20,241 nt of DNA from a virus (lineage: Duplodnaviria > Heunggongvirae > Uroviricota > Caudoviricetes): the IMG/VR virus record IMGVR_UViG_2802429219_000017, positions 1 through 20,241 of that record. One strand, 5' to 3'. Within the stretch, counting starts at the first letter, position 1. Every line of letters begins with the position of its first letter. Positions 15,379 through 20,241 of the stretch are shown one piece after another. A program made the position numbers and the translations under genes. A model generated the notes under the pieces. It was not told where the DNA came from and searched no databases. It saw only the letters and a program-made list of their open reading frames with translations.

Positions 15379-15588
15379 AAACGATTTGCGGGAAAAGGAT
15401 AGTTAAGTAGAATTGCTGCGGGTGCTTGAGGCTATCTGTCTCAGGCATGAACACCAAAGGCAGATAGAGAAAAGCCCCAGTTAACATTACGCGTCCTGCA
15501 AGACGCTTAACATTAATCTGAGGCCAATTTCATGCTAGACACATGTAGGTTAGCCTCTTACGCGCCGAAAGGCAAGGAGAAGCAGGCT

Positions 15589-15744
15589 ATGAAGCAGCAA
15601 AAGGCGATGTTAATCGCCCTGATCGTCATCTGTTTAACCGTCATAGTGACGGCACTGGTAACGAGGAAAGACCTCTGCGAGGTACGAATCCGAACCGGGC
15701 AGACGGAGGTCGCTGTCTTCACAGCTTACGAACCTGAGGAGTAA
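15589..15744 (+). CDS. hok: Hok/Gef-family type I toxin (HokD/RelF-like, 51 aa)
   Basis: MKQQKAMLIALIVICLTVIVTALVTRKDLCEVRIRTGQTEVAVFTAYEPEE matches my memory of the Hok family. AAGGAGAAG SD. An in-frame upstream ATG at 15532 gives a mok-like leader. Confidence 0.85.
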   Translation: MKQQKAMLIALIVICLTVIVTALVTRKDLCEVRIRTGQTEVAVFTAYEPEE

Positions 15745-16888: not shown

Positions 16889-17178
16889 TGGTGGATTTAC
16901 GTAAAGCGGCGCGGGGGCAGATGTGCACCGTCAGAATTCCTGGCTACTGCAATCACGATCCGGAAACGTCTGTGCTGGCGCATTACAGGCTGGCGGGGAC
17001 GTGCGGAACAGCGACAAAACCACACGATATGCAGGCGGCGATTGCCTGTAACTCATGCCACGATTTAATCGACGGGAGAGTAAAAACCAGCGATTACACC
17101 AAAGAAGAATTGCGCCTGATGCATGCAGAAGGTGTTTTTCGCACACAAGAAATCTGGAGAAAGGAGGGATATTTATGA
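16888..17178 (+). CDS. YbcO-like DUF1364 protein (putative nuclease, 96 aa)
   Basis: MVDLRKAARGQMCTVRIPGYCNHDPETSVLAHYRLAGTCGTATKPHDMQAAIACNSCHDLIDGR... resembles DLP12 YbcO, including the conserved Cys/His pattern. Confidence 0.7.
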   Translation: MVDLRKAARGQMCTVRIPGYCNHDPETSVLAHYRLAGTCGTATKPHDMQAAIACNSCHDLIDGRVKTSDYTKEELRLMHAEGVFRTQEIWRKEGYL

Positions 17179-17723
17179 TTTACCCAACGAATACAGGAAA
17201 AAGCGGAGAACACCTTCGTCTCACCACGCTGGAAAGTGTCTGGATTCAGGGAAAACTACGTATGTGGGGGCGCTGGTCGTATATTGGCGGCGGCAGGTCA
17301 GGGAATATGTTTAACCAGTTGCTGGCATCCCAAAAAATGACAAAAACAGCCATCAATGAAGCCCTGCGCAGATTGAAAAAAGCGGGAATTGATAAACCAG
17401 AGTTGGAAGCATTTTTGCGAGAGATGATCAATGGTAAGCAAAAGAGCTGGCTGGCGCATTGTACTGATGCAGAGGCGTTATGTATTGATCGGGTTATAAG
17501 TGAGGTGCTGGCAGAACATCCGGGGTTGATTAGCATCCTCCGACAACGGTATGAGGGGCGGGGGATGAGTAAGCTAAAAATGGCAGAGGAGATAAATAAA
17601 ACGCACCCAGAATGGTCGCTAATTACTTGCCGGAGAAGAGTAGAACACTGGTTGACTGTGGCTGAATTCATGTTGTACCTCCCGATGAAAAATTCGTTTG
17701 GTGAAATGACAGATGGTTGGTGA
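17175..17723 (+). CDS. Putative late-gene antiterminator (Q-like, by position), 182 aa
   Basis: AAGGAGGG SD; ATGA overlap with the ybcO-like stop. Last gene before an AT-rich promoter-like region. Family not recognised with confidence. Confidence 0.5.
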   Translation: MIYPTNTGKSGEHLRLTTLESVWIQGKLRMWGRWSYIGGGRSGNMFNQLLASQKMTKTAINEALRRLKKAGIDKPELEAFLREMINGKQKSWLAHCTDAEALCIDRVISEVLAEHPGLISILRQRYEGRGMSKLKMAEEINKTHPEWSLITCRRRVEHWLTVAEFMLYLPMKNSFGEMTDGW

Positions 17724-17739
17724 AAACGAGTGAGACATA

Positions 17740-17766
17740 TTGAAGTGTGCTAAAATTATGTATAAT
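17740..17766 (+). promoter_or_regulatory. Candidate late promoter (TTGAAG ... TATAAT)
   Basis: TTGAAG (17740-17745) and a perfect TATAAT (17761-17766) with a short 15-nt spacer, in an AT-rich gap. Other -10-like hexamers lie nearby. Confidence 0.4.
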
Positions 17767-17851
17767 TTCAGTGATTTTCCAGAAGGATAGCTTAAAATTT
17801 GTTAGTACTTGGAATAATTTTTTCACATAGTATGTATGTTAAGGAGGGTAA

Positions 17852-18160
17852 ATGGTAACAAAATCAATGCATATTATTGAGATTGTTAAACTTTTCTTTC
17901 AACTTGTTAGAGATGACGAAAAAAAGTATGAGCCAGAAGTGTACGTACATACTATGCCGAAAAACGGTTTAGGCAGCATCAAGATTCATGGTCGTGGGGG
18001 ATTGGAGGTTTCTTCCTCTGAGATAAAAAAATCGCCGGAGTTTAAGGCAATGGTGGGCTATGCAAAGGAAAGAGTGAAACATGATTCATCTTTGAACGAC
18101 TTACCAAACGGGTATGAGCAACATCTGCCACACACGAAGTTTGAGGCAGAACACCGATGA
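17852..18160 (+). CDS. Hypothetical soluble protein (102 aa), first gene of the AT-rich cassette
   Basis: AAGGAGGG SD. AT-rich coding sequence. Stop overlaps the next start (ATGA). Confidence 0.6.
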   Translation: MVTKSMHIIEIVKLFFQLVRDDEKKYEPEVYVHTMPKNGLGSIKIHGRGGLEVSSSEIKKSPEFKAMVGYAKERVKHDSSLNDLPNGYEQHLPHTKFEAEHR

Positions 18161-18945
18161 TTGCTGTTTTGCTTGTGCCTCTTCTGATTAGCGGATTTAT
18201 CCTTTTGACCAAACATCCTTATCATTACTACAGGTTACACCGTTACTCTGGCCAGTTGCTTTACATGAAAGCGGCTGGCTATGGGTTTTATTGTGTCCTG
18301 ATAGCAGTAGGGAGTGCTGTCATCACTAAAGCTGTTTTTGCCGATATCCATCCGGTTATGGCGATCGCAGAGTGGGCTGATTTTACCGAGAGTGAGTCGC
18401 AAAATCGACTATGGGCTTGGTTCATTATTATATCTGTAACTTCGATTTCAATCGGCTATGTTTGGGCTTATTTAGCTAAAACTGTATATACAATTAAATT
18501 TCTCAAGGCGCTAATGGCAGAAAACGAAGGGCGTCAATCAATTGTACCGAGAGAGTTAATGAAGCATCTAAAGCTGTCAGTTATGGCTCCCTTAATGCAT
18601 GAAACCCCTATGAATTCATTGTTGTTTAACTCACTGCTTCATAAACGACATATTTTAATAACAATGGATTGTGGAAAAGTTTATGTTGGGGTGGTTTCTC
18701 GCATTACGGAACCGAACGAGACAGAGGCACCTACACAAGAAATCGCATTGACCCCGGTTATGTCTGGATATCGTAACAAGGACACTCGCAGGATATGTTT
18801 TATCAACGATTATTCTGCTCTGTCTGATGTCGATACCAATATTAACATTCCGCGCGAGAACATCACTCATGCATCGTGGTTTAATGAAGAGGTTCATAAA
18901 TCAGTAGACAATACATTCATTGGTCCGCCTGAGCCAGAGAGGTAG
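18157..18945 (+). CDS. Hypothetical membrane protein (262 aa): three N-terminal TM helices plus C-terminal soluble domain
   Basis: Translationally coupled to the preceding gene. Hydrophobic segments around residues 3-18, 42-57 and 85-107. Confidence 0.65.
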   Translation: MIAVLLVPLLISGFILLTKHPYHYYRLHRYSGQLLYMKAAGYGFYCVLIAVGSAVITKAVFADIHPVMAIAEWADFTESESQNRLWAWFIIISVTSISIGYVWAYLAKTVYTIKFLKALMAENEGRQSIVPRELMKHLKLSVMAPLMHETPMNSLLFNSLLHKRHILITMDCGKVYVGVVSRITEPNETEAPTQEIALTPVMSGYRNKDTRRICFINDYSALSDVDTNINIPRENITHASWFNEEVHKSVDNTFIGPPEPER

Positions 18946-19060
18946 TTGTTGGAGTGGCAGTATAAAACCATTGCAAAATGAGCAACAAACTGCTTTAATT
19001 CCGGTACGCTTCGCAAAGCTGTATCGCGAGGCGAACCAAGCGCAATTGAACTTTAATAGA

Positions 19061-19088
19061 ACCCGCCATCGAGCGGGTTTTGTTGTTT
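19061..19088 (+). terminator. Rho-independent terminator after the two-gene unit
   Basis: ACCCGC-CATCGA-GCGGGT followed by TTTGTTGTTT; same stem sequence as the hok terminator. Confidence 0.65.
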
Positions 19089-19164
19089 CTGGTGAACTTG
19101 GTGTTTCATCGTCAGGCGTTCAGGTAAAATTGAGCGTATTACAGATTACGTGGTTGGTGAAGGA

Positions 19165-19734
19165 ATGAAAAATCTACCCGGCGACTATTTTCTTGATGCG
19201 GATGATGACATTCTTGATTTTCTTGAAAAACAGGGAGAAGAGTGCATTCGGGAAATCCATTGCTCAAACAGCATCAACAAGGAAAATGGCTATAAATTAT
19301 TAAGCATTCTGATAGTTGGCATCGGTTCATCATTTTTACTATTAACGCAAAAAACTCATCTGGATTTTTTGGGCGCTGGACTGGCTGTTTTTGTCTTTTA
19401 CTGGTCCATTTGTGCTGTGTACCTTGTTGTTAATGTGCTGAAAGTGCATAAGCGTGCCATTATTCATGCGTCGCCAGATATTCTGTACACTCCGGCGATT
19501 AAGGGCATTACTGCGATGGATTACGCCAGGTTTAAAGAGCGAGGTTTTTCGGGGAAAGACAGCCGTTTGTCCATATTGAGAAGGTACAGATTGATGGCTT
19601 TGTGCAGAACTGCAAACGAATTATTGCAGGAAAATAAAAGACTGAGAGAAGGACTCGAGAAGGCAAGGATATCAGCTATCCTTGCCCCCGTTTATTCATT
19701 AATGGTTTCTGTTGTTATTTACTTTTTCTTCTGA
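19165..19734 (+). CDS. Hypothetical membrane protein (189 aa): two central TM helices and a hydrophobic C-terminal tail
   Basis: ATG at 19165; the track ORF starts with GTG at 19150. AT-rich. Acidic soluble N-terminus. No recognisable family. Confidence 0.55.
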   Translation: MKNLPGDYFLDADDDILDFLEKQGEECIREIHCSNSINKENGYKLLSILIVGIGSSFLLLTQKTHLDFLGAGLAVFVFYWSICAVYLVVNVLKVHKRAIIHASPDILYTPAIKGITAMDYARFKERGFSGKDSRLSILRRYRLMALCRTANELLQENKRLREGLEKARISAILAPVYSLMVSVVIYFFF

Positions 19735-19867
19735 TACCTCCCCAGGAATCACCAACGACCAATCTCTCTACGGAAAAAGGATCCTTCTTTGGTTCCTCTG
19801 TTGATTTGGGCTTTGGAGCTGACTTGGATTTGTCATTTTCATCTAATGGTTTGTTATTCTGACCCAT
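19715..19867 (-). CDS. Candidate 50-aa lysine-rich peptide, convergent with and overlapping the preceding gene
   Basis: Hand-translated: MGQNNKPLDENDKSKSAPKPKSTEEPKKDPFSVERLVVGDSWGGIRRKSK. GAGGT SD ~5 nt upstream. Overlaps the last 20 nt of 19165-19734. Confidence 0.3.
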   Translation of the reverse strand: MGQNNKPLDENDKSKSAPKPKSTEEPKKDPFSVERLVVGDSWGGIRRKSK

Positions 19868-19983
19868 TTCTTACCTCATTTGAGACATTGTTACTTTTGG
19901 CGATTTAACAATATCAAAAATCCGGGTATGTGGTGAATACAGCACTATGAATACGAGAGCAATTACCCACGCACTTTAATCTG

Positions 19984-20007
19984 AGGCTCGCTACGGCGGG
20001 CCTTTTT
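19984..20007 (+). terminator. Rho-independent terminator (8-bp stem AGGCTCGC/GCGGGCCT, UACG loop, T-run)
   Basis: Stem 19984-19991 pairs with 19996-20003 (one G-U pair), tetraloop TACG, then TTTT. Confidence 0.5.
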
Positions 20008-20145
20008 CATATCCGCGCCACGCCCGGCGCACATCAAAAACCACAGAGCCTTTCAGGGGTGAGCTTACGGGATGGTCAGTGTGACTTTCTCTGTGGGCTG
20101 GTCACCCCCCGGGCGGAGGCTCACCCACTAAAAGGAAAAGTCACG

Positions 20146-20241
20146 ATGTTTGGTATTTTCAAAAAGAAAACCCGCAAGGCCATTACTGAAGTAAAGAAAA
20201 TGGAGAACCGCGATGCAGTGGAGGCGACCGTCTGGGGCGCG
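20146..20241 (+). CDS. Partial CDS (N-terminal 32 codons), truncated by the window end
   Basis: AAGGAAAAG SD before the ATG at 20146; MFGIFKKKTRKAITEVKKMENRDAVEATVWGA...; not recognised. Confidence 0.4.
   Translation, partial: MFGIFKKKTRKAITEVKKMENRDAVEATVWGA

Follow-up and report, generated by a model that had tools for sequence, protein, structure and literature searches.

Lambdoid phages are among the best-studied genetic systems, and their accessory genes carry toxins as well as defence and exclusion functions. In phage lambda, RNA polymerase modified by the Q protein reads through terminators in the late operon. Leaders and riboswitches that sequester the Shine-Dalgarno sequence (SD) in a pseudoknot are also known, for example SAM-II and preQ1-II, and T4-type phages are said to carry mobile cassettes, called PeSL, in which early promoters and a simple stem-loop flank hypervariable accessory open reading frames (ORFs). 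The morons of lambdoid phages are accessory genes of the Q-dependent late region that lie downstream of pR' and between tail genes and have a sigma-70 promoter of their own (Juhala et al. 2000, summarised in PMC4104026). The small RNAs (sRNAs) STnc100 and PasD are found in the same region, from Q to the lysis genes, of Escherichia coli and Salmonella prophages; the TerB gene is listed there only as a neighbour of PasA/PasC, and the leader treated here is not described (bioRxiv 10.64898/2026.05.13.724894). Here we analyse IMG/VR virus record IMGVR_UViG_2802429219_000017, positions 1 to 20,241 (20,241 nucleotides, nt; hereafter the window), which is a lambdoid prophage of E. coli. Close to its end an intrinsic terminator is followed by a structured leader and the start of a TerB-family gene resembling tciA (Table 1). 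We think it probable that terminator and leader form a portable cassette, in which a pseudoknotted, cis-acting RNA gates translation of the accessory gene behind it. The leaders are rated as a new, widespread and apparently unannotated family with unusual cassette behaviour.

The 186-nt stretch that was folded reached -70.2 kcal/mol (z = -2.5 against shuffles). This excess of stability is only modest, and the argument for the fold rests on comparative data; moreover, energy folding deals with nested structures, and pseudoknots lie outside the energy evaluation. Among 53 representatives, 98.0% of the cells were standard pairs, compared with 37-48% for slid controls. Changes on both sides of a pair were counted in 80 cells (27.5 ± 4.7 in shuffles) and the covariation score was 0.179 (0.124 ± 0.004 in shuffles), values reached by 0/500 shuffles in both cases. 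The same pattern was found across 70 sequences covering all nine sequence types, A-I, with 93.3% of cells paired compared with 34-55% for slid controls, and 21 double-sided pair changes compared with 8.1 ± 1.4 (0/500 shuffles). A covariance model scored 157 bits on the plus strand, whereas no score on the minus strand exceeded 15 bits, and the G.U pairs are compatible with the plus strand only. An RNA read from the minus strand, which also folded more weakly (z = -1.9), was rejected on these grounds. On this comparative evidence helices P1, PK1, P2, P3 and P4/P6 are shown by covariation, and both the SD and the spacer between SD and AUG are shown to take part in the predicted helices. In addition, the SD was paired in the minimum free energy (MFE) structure and in the partition function for types D, F, G, H and I, with P3 present in the MFE structure of types D and F, and partition-function folds of types G-I gave the GG of the SD a probability of being unpaired of no more than about 0.2.

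The individual helices are kept through many compensated versions. P1 occurs as GCGUC/GACGC, CCGCC/GGCGG and ACGCC/GGCGU. In PK1, one column pair reads C:G in 31 and U:A in 22 of the 53 representatives, with zero exceptions. PK1 was left out of the model that built the 70-sequence alignment, and it is 99.7% paired there (A:U 52, U:A 9 and C:G 4 in one column pair; G:C 62 and U:A 2 in another). At least 12 complementary versions of P2 were found across the superfamily, including CCACAGAG/CUCUGUGG, CCUGCAGA/UCUGCAGG, CCGCAGA/UCUGCGG and CCACAA/UUGUGG, to which GAAAG/CUUUC, GAGAG/CUCUC and CUCAGAA/UUCUGAG can be added. P3 is 99% paired; at its pair 61:138 A:U (33 representatives) alternates with G:C (17 representatives), a coordinated insertion or deletion places GGGG opposite CACCC and GGG opposite CACC, and compensated variants are present in types H (GGAUGACC:GGUUCAUC) and I (GAAG...:...CUUU). 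Type F has GACG...CGUC standing in for P4. P6, which competes with P4, co-varies in five lineages (GTGACTGT/ACAGTCAC, ATTACGTC/GACGTAAT, TTCGTC/GACGAA, TTGCGTC/GACGTAA and, in type H, UCGGAGC/GCUCCGA), and is 84% paired on the leader alignment, a figure that 0/500 shuffles reach. Complementarity for the tentative helix P5 was seen type by type, as GGAGUGGUC/GAUCGCUCC, AGGGA/UCCCU, AGUGG/CCACU and GGCAAA/UUUGCC.

In the middle of the helix between SD and anti-SD a conserved C stands opposite an A (20054 and 20130) in nearly all types; this opposition may serve recognition or be a weak spot by design. A 19-codon upstream ORF (MVSVTFSVGWSPPGRRLTH*, 20072-20131, ATG 20072) was considered and rejected, as it exists in type A only, is lost in types B-F, and its frame is broken by insertions and deletions.

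Table 1. Position, strand and description of the cassette, its helices and the neighbouring features in the window.
Feature	Position	Strand	Description
Q-like antiterminator gene	17055-17723		DUF1133 and weak antitermQ match
Cargo ORFs	17852-18160, 18157-18945, 19150-19734	+	Function unassigned
Small cargo ORF	19715-19867	minus	50 amino acids; strong SD GAGGTAAG; PHROG 14506
Conserved 40-bp block	19886-19925		Upstream module, outside the cassette; TTGTTAC-N-TTAACAATATCAAAAA; perfect 6-bp inverted repeat TTGTTA...TAACAA
Intrinsic terminator	19983-20007	+	9-bp stem, UACG loop, U5 tract; the conserved module begins here (5' side)
Structured leader	20015-20145	+	About 130 nt, directly after the terminator; followed by ATG 20146
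P1 hairpin	20015-20030	+	GCGCC-ACGCCC-GGCGC; 99% paired
PK1, 5' arm	20021-20025	+	P1 loop CGCCC; pairs with 20111-20115
PK1, 3' arm	20111-20115	+	GGGCG; covariation
P2, 5' arm	20041-20048	+	CCACAGAG; 8-bp helix with 20089-20096; crosses P3, giving a pseudoknot
P2, 3' arm	20089-20096	+	CUCUGUGG; covariation
P3, 5' strand	20049-20065	+	Anti-SD CCUUU (20049-20053) and GGGGUGAGC; RNAalifold consensus
P3, 3' strand	20118-20135	+	GGCUCACCCAC-UAAAAGG; includes SD AAAGG (20131-20135)
P4 hairpin	20074-20086	+	GGUCA-GUG-UGACU; 98% paired; mutually exclusive with P6
P5 (tentative)	20069-20109	+	GGGAUGGUC (20069-20077) with GGUCACCCC (20100-20109)
P6, 5' strand	20080-20088	+	UGUGACUUU; pairs with 20137-20145; overlaps the 3' arm of P4
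P6, 3' strand	20137-20145	+	AAAGUCACG; SD-AUG spacer
Start of TerB-family (tciA-like) gene	20146-20241	+	ATG 20146; truncated by the end of the window

An earlier note, made from the letters of the window, had described a GC-rich structured stretch behind a terminator with a UACG loop, followed by a partial gene with a good SD, and had offered a riboregulatory leader as one option. The description is borne out and the leader option is supported. The G+C content is 0.55-0.57 over 19950-20149 compared with 0.35-0.47 in the flanks, the SD and the ATG stand at the end of the conserved fold, and the leader option agrees with a conserved RNA structure that shows strong covariation and whose helices include the SD and the SD-AUG spacer. 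The repeats named in the same place fared less well. GAGGCTC is indeed present twice (19983 and 20116), but this is the chance level (2 found vs 1.8 expected), and the second copy hinges on a minority G at 20116, where most homologues read GCGCAGGCTC. The supposed repeat GGGTGAGC is found only once on the plus strand, at 20057; its other occurrence, at 20119-20126, is the reverse complement, and the two are thus the arms of a helix.

The terminator hairpin (19983-20004) reads GAGGCUCGC-UACG-GCGGGCCUU, with 9 bp of which 6-7 are G:C pairs and 2 are G.U pairs, and is closed by U5 at 20003-20007; it has an energy of -16.7 kcal/mol, with z = -5.2 relative to shuffles. It is the sole plus-strand terminator-like site found by a scan of 19700-20241, with 2 such sites on both strands of that interval compared with 0.7 ± 1.1 expected. 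A hairpin with a T-run was found in 107 of the 122 unique family members, ending 10-23 nt (mostly 11-14) before P1. The stems have at least 30 different sequences, and the preservation of hairpin and T-run through all of them marks the terminator as genuine and as part of the module.

To define the extent of the module, the window was searched by megablast against 5426 complete E. coli genomes. Homology between prophages starts at 19982-19985, the first base of the hairpin, and runs into the gene. The interval of the earlier note began too far upstream, at 19901, and 19901-19982 belongs to an unrelated module. With sensitive blastn, terminator and leader were found in 1341 of the 5426 genomes, at up to 6 sites each, and O157:H7 genomes carry 3-5 copies each. 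The leader was also found in phages of Escherichia, Klebsiella, Enterobacter and Citrobacter, in other enterobacterial genera and in mEp phages, and a pair of pattern scans added more than 200 loci from IMG/VR. The 104 distinct core sequences fall into six types, A-F, with the window copy belonging to type A. Genes upstream of the module vary and include tRNA arrays, methylase genes and other ORFs. The K-12 cryptic prophages DLP12 and Qin have no copy.

One prophage contains a divergent second copy (L006 6472-6602, 44.5 bits with the covariance model), placed after Rz and before an unrelated ORF. A scan of IMG/VR with the P1 sequence of this copy returned at least 120 contigs, designated type G. 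Together with the rarer types H and I, these have the same architecture built from different sequences: PK1 is UCGCAC:GUGCGA or UCUCAC:GUGAGA, P2 is GAAAG:CUUUC, GAGAG:CUCUC or CUCAGAA:UUCUGAG, and P5 is GGCAAA:UUUGCC. Type G occurs in 226 of the 5426 E. coli genomes and is annotated in none of them; DH5alpha has a copy via phi80. Homology across the superfamily stops at the SD, and type G is then followed by more than 15 unrelated ORFs.

The gene behind the window copy is best seen in L001, where the TerB homologue ('TciA') is full length (141 amino acids) and matches both Pfam TerB and PHROG 632; in homologues this gene is followed by a DUF3927/TciB gene and then by holins. The leaders of types A and B are about 85% identical, their TerB proteins 43%; some type A-F leaders precede a gene for an NMT1-like periplasmic binding protein, and TerB homologues with unrelated leaders exist (L009-L012). 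Locus searches based on TerB found mostly close relatives. In HK639 there are two copies, each just behind a different annotated terminator, one lying between the major tail gene and gene 13 and the other between the lysis region (after Rz) and rha. In phi80 two copies lie between Rz and cos, before rha and before orf66, and here too each follows closely on a terminator of its own. These arrangements show that the leader is independent of the identity of the downstream gene.

Several variants of the module were observed alongside. The annotated starts of rha (phi80 43739 and HK639 47343) fall inside the leader (L427 892-1043 and L430 47240-47387), and a start at the SD and ATG at the end of the leader (MNNPSVIP...) is more likely. 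A deletion variant (L227 2501-2560) has kept the terminator and P1, with the rest of the leader and tciA-tciB gone and the holin gene next, which shows the phage can do without the cassette. In PPompW-type phages (H88-H98) ISEc20, an insertion sequence (IS) of the IS110 family, sits within the leader at L019 4069-5527, directly after ...CCTTTCGGGGGG; the insertion is identical in 11 related phage records, and the leader may contain a preferred target of ISEc20. In homologues, a short way past the point that corresponds to the end of the window and 3' of the DUF3927 gene, a CA-rich stretch, CACCACACAAAAGG, accompanies two hairpins that have T-runs (L001 5983-6075). This is the position where the literature puts convergent anti-sRNA genes of the AgvB/PasA type. 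A link between the leader and the Pas, AgvB or AsxR prophage sRNAs was considered and rejected, as those lie 3' of cargo genes and elsewhere than the leader.

These features suggest how the cassette would work. The intrinsic terminator would halt unmodified RNA polymerase arriving from upstream, and Q-modified late transcription would read through; we infer that only Q-modified polymerase does so. Transcription of the late genes has to pass this genuine terminator, which stands within the Q-dependent late region. A promoter between the terminator and the ATG was sought and rejected: the scan finds none there, hexamers picked out by eye near the T-run and P1 match at 3-4 of 6 positions, and the presumed -10 is not conserved. 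With no promoter detectable and a variable linker after P1, the mRNA of the gene comes from upstream through the terminator, and the leader would be part of the mRNA of the downstream accessory gene, here the TerB/tciA-like gene. In this mRNA the CCUUU of the leader would pair with the SD at the base of P3 and an apical segment with the SD-AUG spacer (P6), and the pairings on the 5' side, of the P1 loop with GGGCG (PK1) and of CCACAGAG with CUCUGUGG (P2), would act as clamps on the fold. Because the SD lies within the base of P3 and, in most types, the spacer can pair as well, the leader is read as a cis-acting gate on translation initiation. In the folded form, translation would be shut off or strongly damped. 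Opening could come about by formation of P4 instead of P6, by an alternative long hairpin, by both, or by a factor that breaks the clamps, and the candidate triggers range from a ligand, a protein or temperature to processing and the kinetics of co-transcriptional folding. Both the effect on translation and the direction of the switch are what we infer from these pairings.

A number of observations weigh against this reading. The roughly nine types stand for few lineages, and the shuffle statistics overstate their independence. The regulatory effect is proposed from the pairing alone. The pairs between SD and anti-SD hardly vary, so CCUUU:AAAGG is backed by conservation and not by covariation; P6 is absent in type G; and P5 did not rise above shuffles on the MAFFT alignment and stays tentative. 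About 12% of family members are without a recognisable terminator. P2, P3 and P6 meet at one point with non-nested connectivity and could not be drawn jointly without pseudoknots, which would mean either a pseudoknotted junction or helices that alternate. Moreover, for types A-C, the window copy included, nested folding favours a different hairpin, 'Alt' (about -54 kcal/mol), in which the SD is free, and the resting state of the window copy could therefore be 'on'. The Alt fold is 89.5% pair-compatible across the family. As a conserved structure in its own right it was rejected, its covariation being not above shuffles and many of its cells broken, and it is kept as a possible alternative conformer only. 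Alt may represent the open state, and P4, which sequesters the anti-spacer, may be part of that state.

Two other readings accept a functional RNA. In one, which we consider unlikely, the leader is a riboswitch: a small molecule or an ion, bound by the pseudoknotted core (P1/PK1/P2/P3/P5) as aptamer, would decide between the SD-sequestered and the open fold. Its complexity is of the right kind (about 130 nt, at least five helices, two pseudoknots, a structure supported by covariation), it contains near-invariant unpaired or non-canonical positions such as the C.A in the SD helix and the CUUUCAG and CUAAAAGG strands, its two competing folds are both largely compatible with the sequences, and the expression platform would overlap the SD. 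However, the downstream genes are functionally unrelated (TerB-like, NMT1/solute-binding-like, Rha and more than 15 others) and make up no coherent pathway, so that no common metabolite is suggested, unlike in known riboswitch classes; in addition, the element is limited to phage late operons and matched no Rfam riboswitch even at E = 10. The other reading, distinctly unlikely in our view, is that of an RNA processing element, either a self-cleaving ribozyme or a site for RNase III, RNase E or RNase P, which frees the accessory-gene mRNA from the late transcript, the terminator hairpin then shielding the new 3' end and P1 the new 5' end. The helices seen here are long and irregular (about 16 bp in P3 and about 31 bp in Alt), much like phage RNase III sites such as the T7 R sites and that of the lambda N leader. 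A double-pseudoknot topology is frequent in small ribozymes, the element is always at a gene boundary directly behind a stable hairpin, and the cassette works whatever gene follows. Against this, no Rfam ribozyme matched at E ≤ 10 and no conserved candidate cleavage dinucleotide was identified, and processing alone leaves the covariation of SD and spacer with leader segments unexplained.

The remaining explanations place the function in transcription or in the DNA. The earlier note took the hairpin for a site like tR', with the late promoter at about 19890-19920 and the cargo at 17.8-19.9 kb inserted between Q and that promoter. One part of this holds: the terminator is genuine and conserved, late transcription must pass it, and the genes behind it are of late type (terB and, in homologues, holins after terB). 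The AT-rich conserved block at 19886-19925 does have weak hexamers of -35 and -10 type, and a weak STnc100-like match over 19900-20014 could hint at a short terminated transcript. However, the promoter scan is empty there, the STnc100 score is far below the gathering score, and the sister prophage in strain A30 has Q, ORF102/262 and the terB module in common with the window but not the block, which nearly all other family members lack as well; the block in L225 borders directly on a minus-strand gene. Immediately 3' of the Q gene stands a promoter-like TTGAAG-N15-TATAAT, from which a late start would fall at about 17770. The terminator is 2.2 kb from this site, with two further terminator-like sites in between (19054-19085 and 19662-19686), and identical cassettes recur in late operons far from Q: HK639 has them behind the major tail gene and behind Rz, and phi80 in the stretch from Rz to cos. 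The late promoter at 19890-19920 thus finds no support, nor does an insertion between Q and such a promoter, and we regard the arrangement as scarcely credible. Equally scarcely so is a processive antitermination RNA of the put type, by which the leader would act in cis on its own polymerase and carry it past terminators after tciB or before the lysis genes. The leader is a structured nascent RNA of lambdoid phages, it lies between terminators, and HK639, with its two copies, uses RNA-mediated antitermination according to the record annotation. Yet the putL-like RNA of HK639 (34187-34312) is unrelated and stands apart from both leader copies, the leader is located downstream of terminators instead of directly behind a promoter, several types of Q protein are encoded by these phages, and antitermination leaves the pairing of SD and spacer unexplained. 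Lastly, the element could be a recombination linker, a DNA boundary sequence for module exchange among mosaic phages. Homology breaks exactly at both of its ends, many different genes are joined to it, and deletion and IS-insertion variants exist. A linker without any RNA function is nevertheless very unlikely, as conservation of sequence would be expected, yet the helices are kept by compensatory double changes in at least nine types, and the G.U pattern is strand-specific. A role in recombination may well coexist with the RNA function.

In the window, the RNAs RyeA/SdsR, RalA and sok were found at 463-607, 2169-2347 and 15420-15594, all above Rfam gathering thresholds, indicating that the prophage adjoins the ryeA/sdsR locus and has Rac-like ralR/RalA and hok/sok modules. 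ARAGORN finds no tRNA in the window, and a tRNA or tRNA-like identity of the element was rejected. Upstream of the cassette, 17617-18945 is a rare unit in which the Q-like gene's 3' end is joined by the promoter-like region behind it and by two overlapping ORFs (102 and 262 amino acids). ORF102/ORF262 belong to PHROG 3630 and have no Pfam match. The unit was found in 1 of the 5426 complete E. coli genomes (strain A30 only), where tRNA genes replace the 19886-19925 block, yet terminator, leader and terB are kept. The block itself is common only to L225 and L001, with nearly all other family members lacking it; in L225 a gene of the ECs1072 family takes the place of the 50-amino-acid ORF. A scan of the block for sigma-70 promoters gave no match. 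The block probably serves the small divergent ORF (19867-19715) as promoter/operator region.

When 19700-20241 was searched with Rfam 15, no family matched at its gathering score. The best match below threshold was STnc100-like (RF02076, 19900-20014, 18.7 bits vs a gathering score of 47, E = 0.079) and was driven by the terminator; at E ≤ 10 the same interval gave only such terminator-driven matches, with no riboswitch or ribozyme family among them. One could conceive of a short transcript, some 80 nt long, that starts near 19927 and ends on the terminator at 20007, but nothing supports it. Moreover, in the literature on tciA, DUF3927, TerB, phi80/rha and HK639 no description of the leader was found.

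It is possible, and we put it forward tentatively, that the family is a new class of regulatory RNA of temperate-phage late operons: a pseudoknotted switch responding to a ligand, a protein or the state of the polymerase, or else a small ribozyme. In this form it would be a plug-in cassette, complete with terminator, that times translation of accessory genes with defence, exclusion or toxic functions, rha and terB being examples. Accessory genes might then be silent on Q-driven late transcripts and expressed in the lysogen, or the reverse. A leader of this kind would subject the genes of lysogenic conversion to a general form of post-transcriptional control. It would also be useful for the annotation of gene starts, such as those of rha in phi80 and HK639, as a marker of module boundaries in mosaic phage genomes, and as a compact natural part for gating a ribosome-binding site that is already combined with many coding sequences.

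Compared with described systems, the cassette shares single features with several. With lambda tR', the 6S RNA terminator and transcripts of the StxS type from pR' to tR' it has in common a late-region terminator for Q-modified polymerase. Unlike lambda tR', this terminator is not the first after pR', lying 2.2 kb downstream behind others, and the cassette recurs in late operons. The STnc100 match ends on the terminator, and the leader itself lies outside it. The put RNAs of HK022 and HK639 are likewise structured nascent RNAs of lambdoid phages, and HK639 has both; however, put lies just downstream of early promoters, consists of two simple stem-loops without involvement of an SD, and differs in sequence and location. 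Like morons, the cassette concerns an accessory gene inserted between conserved late genes, with factor-independent terminators flanking or following it, whereas a classical moron has its own promoter and no promoter-like site was found here in 19700-20241, the conserved upstream element being a terminator and a structured leader. The PeSL cassettes, reportedly of virulent T4-like phages, also seem to be short conserved stem-loop regulatory sequences that mark the boundaries of module exchange; the leader differs from them in being a complex pseudoknotted RNA without a promoter, in the late operons of temperate lambdoid phages. From SAM-II and preQ1-II it differs in its length of about 130 nt, in combining two long-range pairings with a hairpin-loop pseudoknot, in having neither a known ligand nor an Rfam match, and in preceding unrelated genes in several copies per phage genome. 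As in SAM-II and preQ1-II, it is a cis-acting 5' leader in which the ribosome-binding site lies in a pseudoknotted helix and the helices are kept by covariation.

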